Below, piece after piece: positions 20,571-32,132 of a stretch of 32,132 nt of DNA (the first letter of the stretch is position 1; every line of letters begins with the position of its first letter). Source of the DNA: an uncultured Granulicatella sp. (GTDB taxonomy: Bacteria; Bacillota; Bacilli; Lactobacillales; Aerococcaceae); NCBI GenBank assembly GCA_947254045.1, contig CAMYBO010000001.1:1-32132 (forward strand). Reading direction: 5' to 3'. The notes below the pieces were generated by a model. It was not told the origin of the DNA, ran no database searches, and saw only the letters and a list, made by a program, of their open reading frames with translations. The position numbers and the translations under genes were made by a program.

Positions 20571-21629
20571 ATGAAAAAGAAAACGATAATAGCAGGAGCT
20601 GCATTACTAGGAACTGTGGGGACAGTAACAAGAATATCTCATGAAGTAGAAGCAGAAGAAGTTTTGAAATCTGTTGTAGAAAATAGTGTATCAACTAAAG
20701 AGCAATTAGAGTCTGATATTGTAAAAACTGAAAAATATGTTCAGGATTTGACAAAACAGACGGAAGAAGCGGATAAACAAGTAAAAAAAGTGCAATCTGA
20801 AAAAACTTTAAAAGAAGCTGAAGTGAATAAAACGAAAGAAGAAGTAAACCGTGTTGAAAAGGTTGAAAAAGATCTTCCTAATAAGAAAAATGAACAAGCA
20901 ATTGCGACATTAAATGATTTGAAGTCAAAATTAGTTCAAGAACAAACAGCATTAACAAAATTAGAAGCCGATTTACAAAATAAACAACAAGATGCACGTG
21001 AAAAACACGAAGGATTAAAGAAAGTTTCTGAAAAGTTGAATGATTTGAAAGAGAAATTAGCTAATTTGAATCGTGTGGATGATATCGTTGATAAGCCTGC
21101 TCAAGACGTAGAAAAAGTTGTGGAAACAGAAAAAACTTCTAAACCATCAACTTGGGTTAAAAATGATAAAGGCGAATGGACATATATTGTAGACGATAAA
21201 GGAACGAAAGCTACAGGTTGGATACAAGATAATGGAACATGGTATCACTTAAATGATTCAGGAACAATGCAAACAGGTTGGATACAAGACAAAGGTACAT
21301 GGTATTATTTAAACCATTCAGGCTCAATGCAAACAGGCTGGGTTCAAGATAATGGAACATGGTATTATTTAAATCCTACAGGTTCAATGCAAATAGGTTG
21401 GGTTCAAGCTAATGGTGCATGGTACTATTTAAGTCGTTCAGGCTCAATGCAAACAGGTTGGGTACAAACTAATGGAACATGGTACTACTTAAGTGGAACA
21501 GGCTCAATGCAGACATGTTGGTTTGAAGTAAATGGTAAATGGTACTATGCAGATAAGTCTGGAGCTTTGTTAACGAATACAACAACACCAGATGGTTATC
21601 AAGTTAATGAAGATGGCGAATGGGTGTAA
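20571..21629 (+). CDS. Secreted coiled-coil choline-binding (cell-wall-binding repeat) surface protein
   Basis: Signal peptide, K/E-rich coiled coil, ~6 TGWxQxNGTWYYLxxSGSMQ repeats, and terminal NTTTPDGYQVNEDGEWV. Confidence 0.88.
   Translation: MKKKTIIAGAALLGTVGTVTRISHEVEAEEVLKSVVENSVSTKEQLESDIVKTEKYVQDLTKQTEEADKQVKKVQSEKTLKEAEVNKTKEEVNRVEKVEKDLPNKKNEQAIATLNDLKSKLVQEQTALTKLEADLQNKQQDAREKHEGLKKVSEKLNDLKEKLANLNRVDDIVDKPAQDVEKVVETEKTSKPSTWVKNDKGEWTYIVDDKGTKATGWIQDNGTWYHLNDSGTMQTGWIQDKGTWYYLNHSGSMQTGWVQDNGTWYYLNPTGSMQIGWVQANGAWYYLSRSGSMQTGWVQTNGTWYYLSGTGSMQTCWFEVNGKWYYADKSGALLTNTTTPDGYQVNEDGEWV
21211..21570 (+). repeat. 60-bp tandem repeats encoding choline-binding repeats
   Basis: ACAGGTTGG...AATGG..CATGGTA.TA.TT recurs every 60 bp, about 6 times. 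Confidence 0.9.
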
Positions 21630-27086: not shown

Positions 27087-27124
27087 GAAAAGAGGCTTAA
27101 CGGCAACGTTAAGCCTCTTTTTTG
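27087..27124. terminator. Bidirectional intrinsic terminator
   Basis: AAAAGAGGCTTAACG-GCAA-CGTTAAGCCTCTTTTTT. Confidence 0.88.
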
Positions 27125-27154: not shown

Positions 27155-27823
27155 TTATTCCTCGAAATGTTTCAAGACTTCTTTTTGAGTTTGTGTATCC
27201 AAAGGATATGGAGAGATGCGATTAATTTCTTCCAAATAAATGGGTAGAAGTAATTGATTAATCTGAGTGATGGATAGTTCTGTTGGATGAGAGGAATCAA
27301 TCGCTAGATTTTGTTTGATTTGCTTGGTGGTTTGTAAAAGAGAGTCATAAGATTTTAGAGTTGAAATGGCAGTTGCATATTGATAGGGGAAAATAATTTC
27401 TAGCGATTGATCATAATAAAGATGGATAGTGTTTCCTACTTTTTTATGATGAATGCAATGATGGTAGGCGCACCAGTGATGATGGGGAGTAGAAGTATAG
27501 ACAGGGAAGTATAGGAAGTCTCCGAAACAATAAGGAATCTTTTTATGAATTTTGGAAAAATGTTTTATGATTTTCTTGATTAGAATATAGGAAATAGGAT
27601 AATTAGCTTCTAATAAATGAAATAACTGAGTAGTCGTTTGATGAGTGATATACCATTGTCCATTCTTGGTAATAACAATGCTGTTAAAATCCGTTAGAGG
27701 AATATCGCTGATATCAAGTAATAGAACAGCATCGCTTATAAATTTCGGCAAACGATGCTGAATACAGCGATCTAACAGCTTTGGATCAAAAGGATGATTG
27801 AAATCTATAACGATGTTTGACAT
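27155..27823 (-). CDS. Divergent ComK-family-like putative transcription factor
   Basis: NSIVI...TTTQL...SY...IHKKIPY...LYFP...HWCAYHH parallels the ComK pattern (HKxP...YFFP...W...H). Has an AGGAGG RBS. Recognition by eye only. Confidence 0.55.
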   Translation of the reverse strand: MSNIVIDFNHPFDPKLLDRCIQHRLPKFISDAVLLLDISDIPLTDFNSIVITKNGQWYITHQTTTQLFHLLEANYPISYILIKKIIKHFSKIHKKIPYCFGDFLYFPVYTSTPHHHWCAYHHCIHHKKVGNTIHLYYDQSLEIIFPYQYATAISTLKSYDSLLQTTKQIKQNLAIDSSHPTELSITQINQLLLPIYLEEINRISPYPLDTQTQKEVLKHFEE

Positions 27824-27835
27824 AAGAATTCCTCC

Positions 27836-27849
27836 TGTAAACGTTTTAT
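27836..27849. promoter_or_regulatory. Putative CcpA cre site
   Basis: TGTAAACGTTTTAT differs from TGWAARCGYTWNCW at one position. It sits between the promoter and RBS of the ComK-like gene. Confidence 0.45.
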
Positions 27850-27861
27850 TATTTCAACTAT

Positions 27862-27890
27862 ATTTTATTCCTAATTCATTAAAATTACAA
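27862..27890 (-). promoter_or_regulatory. Sigma-A promoter of the ComK-like gene
   Basis: Minus strand TTGTAA-N17-TAAAAT. Confidence 0.6.
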
Positions 27891-28065
27891 GCAAAAAGTG
27901 AAAAAAGTCGCAAAAATTACAGAAAAATATCTCATTAATAAGAAATTAGGTGGAATAATATCAGTTTATCGATGAAAATGTCAAAAACGATTTTTGCCTT
28001 TCTATACCATTTATTATACAGTTTAAGCAACAAGATCTTGTAAAAACAATAAAGGAGAGAGGAGT

Positions 28066-28623
28066 ATGGAGTATTGGGAAATGCCAGCAGATTGGAGCGA
28101 AGAATATCTTCAAACATTTGAACCAGTTTTATATTCTGTATTAAGAGGTTACCATGTGTCAAATACGAACTCAGAATATCAAGACTTACTTCAGTTAGGA
28201 AGGATTCTAATATTAGAAACATTTCAGAAATTAGGAGGAAATCCTCTGGAAGAACAACGATATATTTACGCTGCTTATATCAAACGAGGGTTTACATGGA
28301 TTTGTTTGCGAGAATTTTCAAAAGAAAATCAGCAAAAGATGCGAGAATGTAGTGATGAGCGTCTGGAGTTTATGTTAGGAAGCAACAATGATATTCAAGG
28401 GCAATTGGAGACGAGTGAAGAATTAGGCAAATTGTACACACTACTAACCCCAAGACAGAAGAAAACACTGGAGTTGTTCCTAGAACAATCAGATTCTATA
28501 AAGGAATTAGCTGAGCTTGAGGGACGCTGTAAGAGTAAATATTATCGGGACAGACAAGCGATTCAAAAGAAATATCAAGCATATATACAAGGAGGAGAGT
28601 CAAATGGTCGAAAAAATCAATGA
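28066..28623 (+). CDS. Alternative sigma-70-family-like factor (regions 2 and 4 only)
   Basis: EYQDLLQLGRILILE resembles region 2.2 (DLxQEG). LTPRQKKTLEL...SIKELAELEG...YYRDRQAIQKK resembles the region 4 HTH. 185 aa. Confidence 0.7.
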   Translation: MEYWEMPADWSEEYLQTFEPVLYSVLRGYHVSNTNSEYQDLLQLGRILILETFQKLGGNPLEEQRYIYAAYIKRGFTWICLREFSKENQQKMRECSDERLEFMLGSNNDIQGQLETSEELGKLYTLLTPRQKKTLELFLEQSDSIKELAELEGRCKSKYYRDRQAIQKKYQAYIQGGESNGRKNQ

Positions 28624-29344
28624 AACATTAATGGAAAACAGTGGACGTTTAGTAGGAGTGGAATTTGTGGTGATTCATAATGATGCAGGTTCTATGACAC
28701 CAGAGCAGTATATCGAATGGCTAAGATACCGTGAAAAATCACTGGGAATTGCGCATTATTATTGTAATCGTAACACGATTGTGCGAGTAGTGGATACGTA
28801 TAATATTGCCTATCACACTGGAGATTGGTGGAGTAATACTCGATCCATTGGATATGAAGTCTGTGAAAGTATGAAAGTCTCAGACGAAGAATTTATAGAA
28901 AATGAAGACATCACTTTAATGCAAGCGACGGAAGATTTACTCTATTATGGATTACCTATTACGAAGGAAACCGTGAGACTTCATCATGAATTTGTGCCAA
29001 CTTCTTGCCCTCATAGAAGTTTAGCGTTGCATGGAGGAACAACCGAAAGTGTGAAAGAATATTTTGTCATCCGAATGAATGAATTCGCACAGTTAGGGAG
29101 CACAGTAGAAGAAATGCTTTCTGGAATTGGAAATGGGACAGAAGATAATGAGGATACGTCTAATAATGAAGAACCCACACCTGATGAAGAGAAGGCAGTA
29201 CATGAGAAAACGAATGAAGATATCGCAGATGAAGTCATTCTTGGATTGTGGGGAAATGGAGCCGAACGACAACAACGCCTGGAAGAAGAAGGCTATGATT
29301 ATGATGCCATTCAAGAAATCGTAAATAAAAAAATCAGTGAATAG
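28604..29344 (+). CDS. N-acetylmuramoyl-L-alanine amidase (Amidase_2) with acidic linker and Cpl-7/CW_7-type binding repeat
   Basis: VVIHNDAGS, AHYY, IGYEVC and RLHHEFVPTSCP, then C-terminal KTNEDIADEVILGLWGNGAERQQRLEEEGYDYDAIQEIVN. No signal peptide. ATG 28604 follows GGAGG. Confidence 0.88.
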   Translation: MVEKINETLMENSGRLVGVEFVVIHNDAGSMTPEQYIEWLRYREKSLGIAHYYCNRNTIVRVVDTYNIAYHTGDWWSNTRSIGYEVCESMKVSDEEFIENEDITLMQATEDLLYYGLPITKETVRLHHEFVPTSCPHRSLALHGGTTESVKEYFVIRMNEFAQLGSTVEEMLSGIGNGTEDNEDTSNNEEPTPDEEKAVHEKTNEDIADEVILGLWGNGAERQQRLEEEGYDYDAIQEIVNKKISE

Positions 29345-29424
29345 GGGTAAAATTTATCTGTCTTCTTATATTTATAGTGTAGGAAGTCATGACACTACAA
29401 AAAATAAACAGGAGGAAAAAGAAA

Positions 29425-29634
29425 ATGGCAAAAGTATTTCAAAAAGCAACATTAGAAGTGTTTCATATGGACGAAGAAAGAGGAAAGGTAAAACGAATCA
29501 AAAGCTTACCAAATCTAGTTGAAACAGCCGATGAAGAAGCGGTGAAAGAAATCGGTGAAGCGTTGAAAACATTGATGAAAGATACTGTAAACTATGTAAC
29601 AGTAGTATCACATTACCGTCATACAATTGGTTAA
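29425..29634 (+). CDS. Small protein, DUF1659-like
   Basis: 69 aa with a strong GGAGG RBS. KATLEV...GKVKRIKSLPNLVETADEEAVKEIGEALKTL, in the typical position before a DUF2922 gene. Confidence 0.65.
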   Translation: MAKVFQKATLEVFHMDEERGKVKRIKSLPNLVETADEEAVKEIGEALKTLMKDTVNYVTVVSHYRHTIG

Positions 29635-29655
29635 TAAGAAAAGGAGTGAAATAAT

Positions 29656-29889
29656 ATGACAACAACAAAAGAATTAAAATTAGTCTTTAAAAAAGCAGAT
29701 GGAAAGCATAAAAACTTAGTCATTGCTAAACCGGTAGAAAACTTAGATGAAGCAACGGTCAAAGGGGCAATGCAGAAAATCGTTAATACATATGCTTTTG
29801 AAAAAGCAGGGAAGAAAGAGTTTGAAGGAGTCGTATCTGCAGCATATGTCGATCGTACCGTAACTCAAGTATTCAAAGAAGAAAAATAG
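29656..29889 (+). CDS. Small protein, DUF2922-like
   Basis: KELKLVFKKADGKHKNLVIAKPVENLDEATVKGAMQKIV...SAAYVDRTVTQVF, with an AAGGAG RBS. Confidence 0.75.
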   Translation: MTTTKELKLVFKKADGKHKNLVIAKPVENLDEATVKGAMQKIVNTYAFEKAGKKEFEGVVSAAYVDRTVTQVFKEEK

Positions 29890-29907
29890 TTGCAAGCAAA
29901 ATTCGAG

Positions 29908-29938
29908 AAAGTCGAAGGGGAAACTCTTCGGCTTTTTT
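29908..29938 (+). terminator. Intrinsic terminator
   Basis: AAAGTCGAAGGG-GAAA-CTCTTCGGCTTTTTT. Confidence 0.85.
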
Positions 29939-30044: not shown

Positions 30045-30687
30045 ATGGTAAAAATGAAAGAACGAATCAAAGATGCAAGACCTATGATGGATTTAATGGC
30101 AAAGAAAATTTTTAGGAATACTGAAATCACAGCACAATTCATTAGCGATATTCTAGACTTACCTGTACACCCTGTAAAAATACTCGATGAAACTCAAATA
30201 CACAATCATCAATTCGAAAATATAAAAACCTATGTCACTAGTATTGATGTATTAGCAGCATTAAACGATGGTACACAGGTTATGATTGAAATTCAAGTAG
30301 CCTACCAATTTGATTTTATCAAACGTTTATGGTTCTATCAATGTAATCAAGTCACCAAAAATGCAGATGAACATAAAAAAGAAAGTGTCAAAACACATAG
30401 ACTCTCAGAAGAAATGTTACCTGTGTATACCATTGCCATTATGCAAAAAAGATATTTTAATGATGAGGAAATGGTTCATGTATACTGCCTCAAAGAAAGA
30501 AAAAGAAAAGAAAGATGCAATAAGTCAGGCTTGGAAAGAAGGAAAAGAAGAAGGCATTGAGCACGGTAAGAAAATGATGATTATCAGTTTGATTAAAGAT
30601 GACCTTCTCTCTAAAGAAGAAGGCGCAAAACGATGAAGTATCTCTGTCATTGAATTAGACGAGGATATGAGCAATAATCAAAAATAG
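30045..30687 (+). pseudogene. Rpn/YhgA-like PD-(D/E)XK nuclease ('putative transposase'), internally deleted and frameshifted
   Basis: N-part DLMAKKIF...IDVLAALNDGTQVMIEIQ...RLWFY. Near 30495 it switches frame to the C-terminal tail KEGKEEGIEHGKKMMIISLIKDDLLSKEEGAKR*SISVIELD. Confidence 0.8.
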
Positions 30688-31333: not shown

Positions 31334-32132
31334 ATGAAGAAAAAATTATTATTATCAAGCGTTGCAGCTTTAACTTTATTTGCAGCTTATAATACTGCTT
31401 CAGCTCAAGATACATACGGAGTTGACAGTACAGCTGTAGAAAACTTGTTGAGAGCTCTTGACATTACAGCTCCAACTACTGTAGACGAAGTTGAAGAAAC
31501 AACAGATAACTTTAAACAACGTCAAGAGGCAGCTGAATCTGTTCGTGAAGCAAATGATAATTTAACAGAAGCGAAAGAAGCTGAAGTTAATGCAGAAGCA
31601 GAATTCCAAAAAGCTCAAGAAGATTACTTTACTGCTTCAAAAAATTATAAATTAGCAAAAGATACTTCAGTTGCAGCTGCAAACAAAAAGGCAGCTTTAG
31701 AGGAAACTAAAAAATCAATTGAAGCTGAAAATAAAAAAGCAAAAGATGAATTAGACGCTAAAAAAGATGCTTTAGGAACTAAAGCTGAAGAAGGTAAACC
31801 AGCAACAAAAGCTTATTCAGACCAAGAAACAGCAAATAAAAACTTAGAAAAAGCTAAAAAAGACGTAAAAGAAGTATATAGAAAAAAACCAGTTTCAACT
31901 ACTAATGTTGAAGCACATAAAAAATATCAAGCTGAAAAACTTGCAGCAGAAGAAGCTGTAAAAACAGCAGAAAAAGCTAAAAAAGAAGCAGATGAAAAAG
32001 TTGCTAAACTTGAAAAAGAAATTTCTAAATTAGAAGAAGCTGGTAAAAAGGCTAAGAAAGAATTAGAAGTTTTAACTGATGCAATTGCAGCATTAGAAAA
32101 AGTAACAGGCGATGATGCCATTGTGAACGGAG
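31334..32132 (+). CDS. Secreted Ala/Lys/Glu-rich coiled-coil surface protein (5' part, runs off window)
   Basis: Not in the ORF track because no stop falls in the window. MKKKLLLSSVAALTLFAAYNTASA|QDTY signal peptide, then an open heptad-like AEK-rich frame to the end. GAGAGG RBS. Confidence 0.88.
   Translation, partial: MKKKLLLSSVAALTLFAAYNTASAQDTYGVDSTAVENLLRALDITAPTTVDEVEETTDNFKQRQEAAESVREANDNLTEAKEAEVNAEAEFQKAQEDYFTASKNYKLAKDTSVAAANKKAALEETKKSIEAENKKAKDELDAKKDALGTKAEEGKPATKAYSDQETANKNLEKAKKDVKEVYRKKPVSTTNVEAHKKYQAEKLAAEEAVKTAEKAKKEADEKVAKLEKEISKLEEAGKKAKKELEVLTDAIAALEKVTGDDAIVNG

Follow-up and report, generated by a model that had tools for sequence, protein, structure and literature searches.

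A probable Granulicatella form of a conserved Bacilli module joining ComK2-type and SigS-type regulators, an SroA/SroB-like pair and a phage-derived endolysin

What might a compact block of five genes, set between two strong terminators just after the acetate kinase gene ackA, do for a Granulicatella cell, and is it a system in its own right? The question is raised by a stretch of 32,132 nucleotides (nt) from an uncultured Granulicatella sp. (contig CAMYBO010000001.1 of assembly GCA_947254045.1, positions 1 to 32,132 of the forward strand), hereafter called the window, which belongs to the G. elegans clade; in a single-protein scan with its sigma factor, the nine closest loci in named records were all Granulicatella, including G. 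elegans ATCC 700633. Within the block, a ComK-like gene is divergent from a gene for a small sigma factor, which is followed by genes for an endolysin-type amidase, a DUF1659 protein and a DUF2922 protein. The first-pass annotation, made from the sequence alone, had proposed an undescribed system in which the ComK-like protein activates the sigma factor and the sigma factor in turn drives the small proteins and the wall hydrolase. We argue here, with a probability of roughly 0.6, that the block represents, in Granulicatella, a Bacilli module made up of a ComK2-type regulator, a SigS-type sigma factor and SroA/SroB, with a phage-derived endolysin as its wall-hydrolysis output. The module is real and conserved; it is already described in parts and new in its cis-linked, lysis-armed form, and it appears to unite pieces that have been studied separately.

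Two lines of published work bear on this reading. In Staphylococcus aureus, the sroAB operon rises 1000-fold under SigS, which transcribes it directly in vitro. Its two products, SroA (DUF1659) and SroB (DUF2922), interact in a two-hybrid assay; SroA makes sigS mRNA more stable, and SroB works against this effect (Al Ali 2022; bioRxiv 10.1101/2022.10.19.512975). A later preprint extends the action of SroA to about 200 transcripts (Alqahtani 2026; PMC13192611). Just downstream of sigS lies SACOL1828, an unexplained gene whose product carries an H-x4-C-x3-C motif (Shaw 2008; PMC2585143). In Bacillus cereus ATCC 14579, the neighbouring sigma gene, BC5251, goes up more than 1000-fold when ComK2 (BC5250) is overexpressed, against 1.9-2.6-fold with ComK1 and ComKBsu, and ComK2 also increases the hypothetical gene BC5247 (Mironczuk 2011; PMC3128618); gene order in a B. 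cereus-like genome suggests that BC5247 is the DUF1659 gene. With SigS-sroAB and ComK2-to-sigma regulation both on record, the label of an undescribed system has to be given up, and so does the statement that DUF1659 and DUF2922 have no assigned function, the S. aureus pair having been named and assigned to sigS mRNA feedback. By term counts, the SigS literature searched makes no mention of ComK and the ComK2 literature none of SigS, and our literature search found no printed link between the two sets of results.

The connection between them is suggested by gene neighbourhood. A survey of DUF2922 loci, proposed in the first-pass annotation as a check on the linkage it described, was carried out on 60 loci, a non-random set of 40 from a list of DUF2922 matches (one to few per family) and 20 flagged by earlier searches, which were mapped with local hidden Markov models and Pfam. 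The linkage held up: among 23 sigma-bearing loci, the order sigma, DUF1659, DUF2922 is found in 18, a ComK-like gene adjoins the sigma gene in 14, spread over eight GTDB families when the staphylococcus-like genomes are included in the count, and a holin and/or peptidoglycan hydrolase lies in the cluster in 15. DUF1659 stands directly upstream of DUF2922 in 54/58 DUF2922 loci. Closer to home, the sigma query matched 15 of 41 related genomes, with the sigma gene just upstream of the DUF1659-DUF2922 pair and on the same strand in 12 of the 15, and matches to the ComK family PF06338 no more than 1.3 kb from the sigma gene in five genomes of that set. All five staphylococcus-like genomes carry a sigma gene of 154-178 amino acids (aa) directly beside a second ComK Pfam match (145-162 aa), an arrangement that matches sigS/SACOL1828 (PMC2585143), and the ComK-like profiles of the window family and of these genomes agree at 89.9% (E 1.7e-6). 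A B. cereus-like locus brings DUF1659, DUF2922, ComK (4.4e-31) and sigma together within about 2.3 kb. More widely, DUF2922 is present in 149/251 sampled genomes of the class, mostly as a single copy, and a B. subtilis control genome gave no DUF1659 or DUF2922 match.

Further genes recur at these loci. A YvrJ gene, not seen in the window block, directly follows DUF2922 in 6/40 class-level loci, three of which have a sigma gene just upstream, and this suggests that YvrJ, the DUF1659/DUF2922 pair and a dedicated small sigma factor are tied into one neighbourhood. In two loci of Bacillales type, Asp23-family genes lie just past the sigma-DUF1659-DUF2922(-YvrJ) cluster (L029 5704-6090; L044 6496-6894), as in the Asp23 neighbourhood of ECF286/ECF292 (PMC7826278). 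In another locus (L024 5529-6028, genome G235) the sigma gene of the module is apparently split into open reading frames (ORFs) of 48 and 131 aa, possibly by a frameshift, amid intact ComK-like, DUF1659, DUF2922 and GH25 genes.

The gene that most colours the block is the amidase. Its Pfam domains, Amidase_2 (7.5e-11) and CW_7 (2.7e-17), comprise a catalytic part and a wall-binding repeat; its relatives in the PDB are an N-acetylmuramoyl-L-alanine amidase (8c4d_A, 1.3e-29), an endolysin (4ols_A, 3e-27) and a Cpl-7-type CW_7 structure (5i8l_A, 5e-20); and it matches a PHROG endolysin family at 8e-41. In two sister Granulicatella genomes (G007 and G010) the order is sigma, DUF1659, DUF2922, holin, amidase, and in a third (G011) the holin gene stands at the contig end. 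This sister-clade holin is of the Phage_holin_4_1 family (PHROG holin, 1e-26), and the amidases that follow it in G007 and G010 are 49-51% identical over their full length to that of the window, which suggests that in the G. elegans clade the same enzyme has been relocated beside the sigma gene, where it carries one CW_7 repeat less and lacks a holin partner. The earlier description of the amidase as 'holin-less' agrees with the lack of any Phage_holin_4_1 match in the 93%-complete assembly, other holin families not having been searched.

Phage-type lysis genes naturally raise the question of whether the block is simply what remains of a prophage, its sigma factor being a phage late-gene activator kept with the lysis cassette after the prophage decayed, and its host function being limited to occasional lysis. 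Besides the ancestry of amidase and holin, such an origin would account for a sister-clade sigma factor that matches a PHROG sigma family at 7.6e-10, for a patchy distribution in the genus (the sigma query matched 8/24 other genomes) and for a chromosomal site that differs between clades. Against it, annotation of the window found no phage structural, integrase or terminase genes at the flanks, a tblastn search with DUF2922 found no match in 50,697 phage records, and the ComK-like, DUF1659, DUF2922 and window sigma proteins match no PHROG. The five genes are collinear in 10/10 close relatives (one amidase match covers residues 49-246 only), and the ratio of nonsynonymous to synonymous substitution (dN/dS), another check named in the first-pass annotation, has pairwise medians of 0.07-0.15 across the five genes in 10-11 genomes, with a single DUF1659 pair at 1.30; all five genes are under purifying selection. 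Moreover, the core of ComK-like, sigma and DUF genes recurs in eight families with lysis genes that change from one to the next: Amidase_2 with CW_7 in Granulicatella, GH25 in five genomes of two families, Amidase_3 in two, Amidase_5 in one, Amidase_2 with LysM in one, and Phage_holin_4_1 in four. A constant core with changing lysis genes fits a host module that captures phage lysis genes, and not the reverse, and we regard a prophage remnant as quite improbable.

The names given to the two regulators in the first-pass annotation are borne out by profile evidence and not by direct Pfam matches. Alone, the window sigma factor matches TIGR02937 at E 6.7e-4, its 19.3 bits falling short of the cut-off at 42.9. 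Across the family alignment (A2), TIGR02937 is matched at E<=1 by 11/11 members (best 2.8e-18), Sigma70_r2 by 8/11 and Sigma70_r4 by 4/11; the A2 profile matches PDB sigma factors from 1.3e-9; and the window protein joins region-2-like and region-4-like parts in one chain. On this family evidence the ORF is accepted as a sigma factor, probably of sigma-70 type and like those of the extracytoplasmic function (ECF) group. Aligned by hhalign with the five staphylococcus-like small sigma factors, A2 scores 97.9% (E 3.2e-13, 150 columns). Pfam and NCBIfam scans matched no anti-sigma family among the neighbours, the adjoining genes being the ComK-like gene and the amidase, and the earlier remark that neither anti-sigma nor phage structural genes are visible agrees with flanks that are housekeeping in character.

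For the ComK-like ORF, there was no Pfam or NCBIfam match at E<=0.1, and PF06338 was absent even at E<=1 in the alignment scan; that model is matched by 8/13 aligned relatives (best 1.3e-8), and by 0/5 in the window's own subfamily. The bridge is provided by a protein of the same genus, which the window ORF matches in BLASTP at E 1e-21 (29% over 177 aa) and which itself matches PF06338 at 5.8e-7, and by an hhalign comparison of the family with a set of ComK proteins led by a listeria-like one (PF06338 1.6e-54), which scores 97.3% (E 2.4e-11, 137 columns). In the ESM Atlas the protein reaches feature scores of 0.92 and 0.91 to clusters with ComK in 15% and 22% of their members, and a structural template-modelling score of 0.80 (by target) to a ComK cluster; its AlphaFold2 (AF2) model was too poor for use, with a predicted local distance difference test (pLDDT) value of 46.5. 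The profiles point to a homology with ComK that is real but remote. Members of the subfamily share an invariant His/Cys-rich stretch, HHHWC.YHH (residues about 114-123, usually then C), which suggests metal or redox sensing, and among close relatives the protein diverges much faster (52-82% identity) than the sigma factor (84-95%). As a separate observation, the canonical comK of a listeria-like genome (G038, contig C10) lies in two pieces about 40 kb apart (335652-335825 and 375672-375965), presumably the known prophage insertion in comK.

A ComK homologue invites a reading in terms of competence, in which the ComK-like protein would be a competence regulator, the sigma factor ComX-like, and the amidase a fratricin that lyses non-competent siblings for their DNA. 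Pneumococcal ComX drives CbpD and LytA, and the window amidase is likewise predicted to be co-expressed with an alternative sigma factor, in a genome that has no canonical ComK match and yet an intact ComEC. Of the studied ComK2 proteins, that of S. aureus is part of the competence programme, yet dispensable for transformation genes (PMC10182052), and it represses comG (PMC12491500), while that of B. cereus lowers comG expression (PMC3128618); in the available text of these three reports, ComK2-type paralogues do not activate DNA-uptake genes. The genome contains only one dyad-marked promoter, that of the block (see below), there is no evident immunity gene, and a further, weak but full-length sigma-like match that the genome holds besides SigA (contig C11), at 2620-3174 of contig C161 (TIGR02937 E 4.3e-4), could be the ComX/SigH-type factor. 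Competence-linked fratricide in this form seems to us unlikely. The broader suggestion of the first-pass annotation, that the block drives programmed lysis or fratricide, gains weight from the holin and hydrolase genes that recur as cargo and may be called possible.

Of the two small proteins, DUF2922 has a confident AF2 model (pLDDT 86.9) with a beta-beta-alpha-beta fold. Foldseek against the PDB returned nothing for this model at E<=1e-3, the best result of a wide VIA-align search was PurS, at Z 4.4, the DUF2922 profile against PDB sequences found nothing below E 0.16, and the ESM Atlas gave neither a model nor a usable match. In the window the two genes follow one another in tandem, each with its own ribosome-binding site (RBS). 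A paralogous relation between DUF1659 and DUF2922 was considered and dropped, the hhalign score of 42.6% (E 2.6e-4, 46 columns) being too weak to claim. Many Granulicatella genomes also hold a second DUF2922 type of about 77-86 aa that has no DUF1659 partner and follows a small HTH_3 (XRE-type) gene, with examples in genome G023 (L071 4977-5237; L072 4980-5213) and one copy just before rpsL-rpsG; the window genome has the paired type only.

The pair could also be the product rather than the regulator, an assembly or effector freed from a lysing subpopulation by the amidase or a holin. Toxin release of the TcdR-TcdE type in clostridia offers an analogue, the pair does adjoin holin and hydrolase genes, and 2/11 family sigma factors, the window protein not among them, match the BotR model TIGR03209, if weakly (best 5.4e-7). 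What speaks against such cargo is that neither DUF1659 nor DUF2922, both small soluble proteins, shows a signal peptide by eye, that most class-level loci hold the pair without a lysis gene, that the DUF2922 model is unlike known toxin or assembly folds (again with a best Z of 4.4), and that in S. aureus SroA and SroB act intracellularly, on sigS mRNA and about 200 transcripts (bioRxiv 10.1101/2022.10.19.512975; PMC13192611). The released protein assembly that the first-pass annotation had entertained found no support, and we hold this explanation to be highly improbable.

Candidate elements of a promoter dedicated to the pair were found upstream of DUF1659, which starts after an 80-nt gap from the amidase gene. 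In the window they comprise a -35-like GGGGTAAAA at 29344-29352 and a -10-like TATTTATAG at 29369-29377. Other Lactobacillales loci have before DUF1659 the sequence GTGACAC or GTAACAC, a spacer of about 15 nt and CGTTTATATAG, with a dyad immediately after; Bacillales loci have (A/G)TGTCC(C/T)TTT ... TATATAG(A/G)GG before the pair. In genomes G028 and G025, whose sigma gene lies elsewhere, the pair is preceded by this promoter and dyad too, and a promoter kept where the pair is unlinked from the sigma gene fits a dedicated sigma factor acting in trans. The dyad, TGTAGGAAGTCATGACACTACA in the window, occurs once in the 1.36-Mb genome. From genus to genus its outer arms change together (TGTAG/CTACA, TGTAAG/CTTACA, TGTAGG/CCTGCA), and its centre varies yet retains a perfect palindrome of at least 6 nt in 15/15 loci (chance 16-42% each).

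A second palindrome, ACAAGATCTTGT, stands 25 nt before the sigma start codon; it is unique in the window and invariant in 11/11 clade loci, against a background identity of 76%, and other genera have different short perfect palindromes at its position. Both elements fold weakly as RNA, the dyad with -3.8 kcal/mol (z -0.94) and ACAAGATCTTGT with -0.6 kcal/mol (z 0.28), and for that reason we read them as putative DNA sites. At the dyad, Rfam returned no family, only sub-threshold matches at chance level, DUF1659 leaders aligned with MAFFT yielded no consensus structure in RNAalifold, and the idea of a stabilising 5' hairpin was dropped in favour of DNA dyad sites. The divergent intergenic region also contains an A-rich block with the core AAAAAG.GAA in 11/11 G. 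elegans-clade loci, against a mean identity of 76% for the region. A K-box-like AAAA-N5-TTTT near 27975-27990, noticed by eye, was discarded on account of its lack of conservation in the closest relatives.

Several observations weigh against the identification of the block with the SigS/ComK2 module, and they are best taken together. Neither the sigma factor nor the ComK-like protein of the window reaches its curated cut-off. The A2 profile puts the small sigma factor first in 2/5 staphylococcus-like genomes and misses it in the other 3/5 at E<=0.01, and the proposed orthology of the window sigma factor with SigS or BC5251 would draw on synteny and on a profile similarity partly common to any sigma factor. 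That SACOL1828 is ComK2 is our inference, stated in no paper searched. In the survey, the 23-locus counts were drawn partly from loci chosen for having matches, and among the 40 chosen by DUF2922 alone a sigma gene lies nearby in only nine; in 9/23 loci, including those of four sister Granulicatella genomes (G004, G007, G010 and G014), no ComK-like gene adjoins the sigma gene, and such a gene is therefore not obligatory. The -10-like element of the window is weaker than that of other genera and lacks their CGT. No copy of the DUF1659-type promoter was found before the sigma gene or the amidase gene, and sigma autoregulation is therefore unsupported here. Finally, no signal peptide was seen by eye on the amidase, and an amidase with neither holin nor signal peptide would be cytoplasmic and may do nothing until cells lyse by other means.

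With these reservations, the cascade from ComK-like protein to sigma factor to small proteins and hydrolase remains the favoured account, given the wide co-occurrence of the genes and an experimental precedent for each arrow in another species, and what falls from the first-pass proposal is the label 'undescribed'. Made from its own sigma-A-type promoter, the ComK-like protein would switch on the divergent sigma-amidase transcript, by analogy with the action of B. cereus ComK2 on BC5251. The sigma factor would then guide RNA polymerase to the ECF-like promoter, leading to production of DUF1659 and DUF2922, as SigS does with sroAB and as the conservation of this promoter in unlinked loci suggests. 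DUF1659 and DUF2922 may associate and regulate the amount of sigma factor in opposite senses, one increasing it and the other counteracting this, a feedback known from S. aureus only. The amidase, translationally coupled to the sigma factor, would be the output, hydrolysing the wall (autolysis or remodelling) when the switch fires, as the recurring hydrolase and holin cargo leads us to propose.

Such a module would join three separate lines of research, namely SigS, which is hard to induce, with its SroAB; ComK2, a puzzle in both S. aureus and B. cereus; and two widespread DUFs, which the compact locus and the survey together suggest are parts of one module. The compact locus offers the module a candidate output, wall hydrolysis, and testable cis-elements in the shared promoter and two dyad sites, and simpler, cis-linked loci of this kind open a direct way to study what triggers SigS-type sigma factors and what they are for. 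The module may have relevance, too, for how oral biofilm bacteria autolyse and release DNA. One could go further and suppose that the ComK2-type regulator, SigS-type sigma factor and SroA/SroB are one ancient Bacilli switch, whose original output was a stress- or DNA-damage-triggered autolysis of a subpopulation, with release of DNA, by way of captured phage lysis genes; we consider this doubtful and put it forward tentatively. Were it true, SigS, ComK2 and the DUF1659/DUF2922 pair would be pieces of one device that is still in one piece in Granulicatella and other Lactobacillales, and the two conserved dyad elements would serve as targets of the small proteins or of the ComK-like protein.

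The features of the block are collected in Table 1. The first-pass description of its anatomy, a terminator-bounded block of five intact frames after ackA (Acetate_kinase, 1e-156), with a ComK-like gene divergent from the sigma gene, an overlap of sigma and amidase genes, and two genes of about 70 aa with RBSs before a closing terminator, proved sound on ORF listing and folding. Two starts were revised: the amidase frame, listed from TTG 28517, has its RBS-supported start at ATG 28604 (GGAGGAG upstream), which gives the 20-nt overlap with the sigma gene, and the DUF1659 frame, listed from 29389, has its RBS-supported ATG at 29425. The terminator that ends the block came from folding and inspection and was missing from the initial terminator scan list.

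Table 1. Features of the block and its cis-elements, in window coordinates
Feature	Position	Strand	Basis
Bidirectional intrinsic terminator in the gap between ackA and the ComK-like gene	27088..27121		15-bp stem; -21.4 kcal/mol, z -8.8, 0/200 shuffles as good
ComK-like regulator, 222 aa	27155..27823	-	Profile homology
A-rich conserved block in the divergent intergenic region	27893..27911		Conservation across clade loci
Predicted sigma-A-type promoter facing the ComK-like gene	27955..27984	-	TTGACA-18-TATTAT with TG, 11/12 consensus matches
12-nt perfect palindrome ACAAGATCTTGT	28030..28041	+	Invariance in clade
Small sigma-70-family factor, SigS-like, 185 aa	28066..28623	+	Family profile evidence
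Endolysin-type N-acetylmuramoyl-L-alanine amidase, 246 aa	28604..29344	+	Amidase_2 and one CW_7 repeat
Predicted ECF-like promoter of the DUF1659-DUF2922 operon	29344..29377	+	Cross-genus alignment
Dyad-symmetric element TGTAGGAAGTCATGACACTACA at the predicted transcript start	29378..29399	+	Arm co-variation between genera
DUF1659 protein, SroA-like, 69 aa	29425..29634	+	Pfam 2.7e-8; AGGAGG RBS
DUF2922 protein, SroB-like, 77 aa	29656..29889	+	Pfam 3.7e-20
Intrinsic terminator ending the block	29905..29938	+	-19.6 kcal/mol, z -5.3, U-run after

The chromosomal surroundings are housekeeping genes (methionine ABC transporters, RNase R, SmpB, ProRS, TsaB/D, MurA, L21-Prp-L27, a YtxK-like methyltransferase and AckA), and PADLOC returned no defence-system match. 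Beyond the block, the decay of accessory genes noted in the first-pass annotation can be seen in an Rpn/PDDEXK_2 'transposase' gene (30045-30636) that is apparently truncated or frameshifted, its 171-aa ORF covering profile positions 1-141 of 229 and being overlapped by a 108-aa ORF in another frame; an intact, 286-aa family member lies at the same side of the module in genome G009. A 352-aa protein of choline-binding repeats (20571-21629) hints at choline-decorated wall polymers, whereas the amidase of the module uses CW_7. At 31334-32131 begins an Ala/Lys/Glu-rich, coiled-coil-like surface protein with a signal peptide and no Pfam match at E<=0.01, which continues past the window end.

How, then, does the block compare with what is already known? 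Alternative sigma factors in the company of a phage-type holin and/or murein hydrolase are familiar from TcdR and TcdE of Clostridioides difficile, from Xpf of PBSX with XhlB and XlyA, and from pneumococcal ComX with CbpD and LytA. The window block differs from these cassettes in having no toxin, phage particle or DNA-uptake genes, and its ComK-like and DUF1659/DUF2922 partners are not part of them. The likeness to ComK2 and BC5251 of B. cereus lies in a ComK paralogue beside a small sigma factor, which ComK2 there induces strongly and specifically (PMC3128618); the orientation is convergent in B. cereus and divergent in the window, a DUF4359 gene lies between the parts in B. cereus, and there is no hydrolase cargo there. 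The available portion of that paper draws no connection between the sigma factor and DUF1659/DUF2922. With SigS and SroA/SroB of S. aureus the block shares a small ECF-like sigma factor, a tandem DUF1659-DUF2922 operon with separate RBSs and a ComK-family neighbour of the sigma gene, and the His/Cys-rich motif of SACOL1828 (PMC2585143) is reminiscent of the HHHWC.YHH stretch of the window protein. The ComK-like gene is divergent and encodes 222 aa in the window, whereas the staphylococcal one lies downstream of the sigma gene and encodes about 145 aa. Staphylococci have the pair away from sigS, beside a short integrase-like gene; in the window all parts are gathered into a single 2.8-kb block in which, unlike S. 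aureus, an endolysin has been joined into the sigma transcript.

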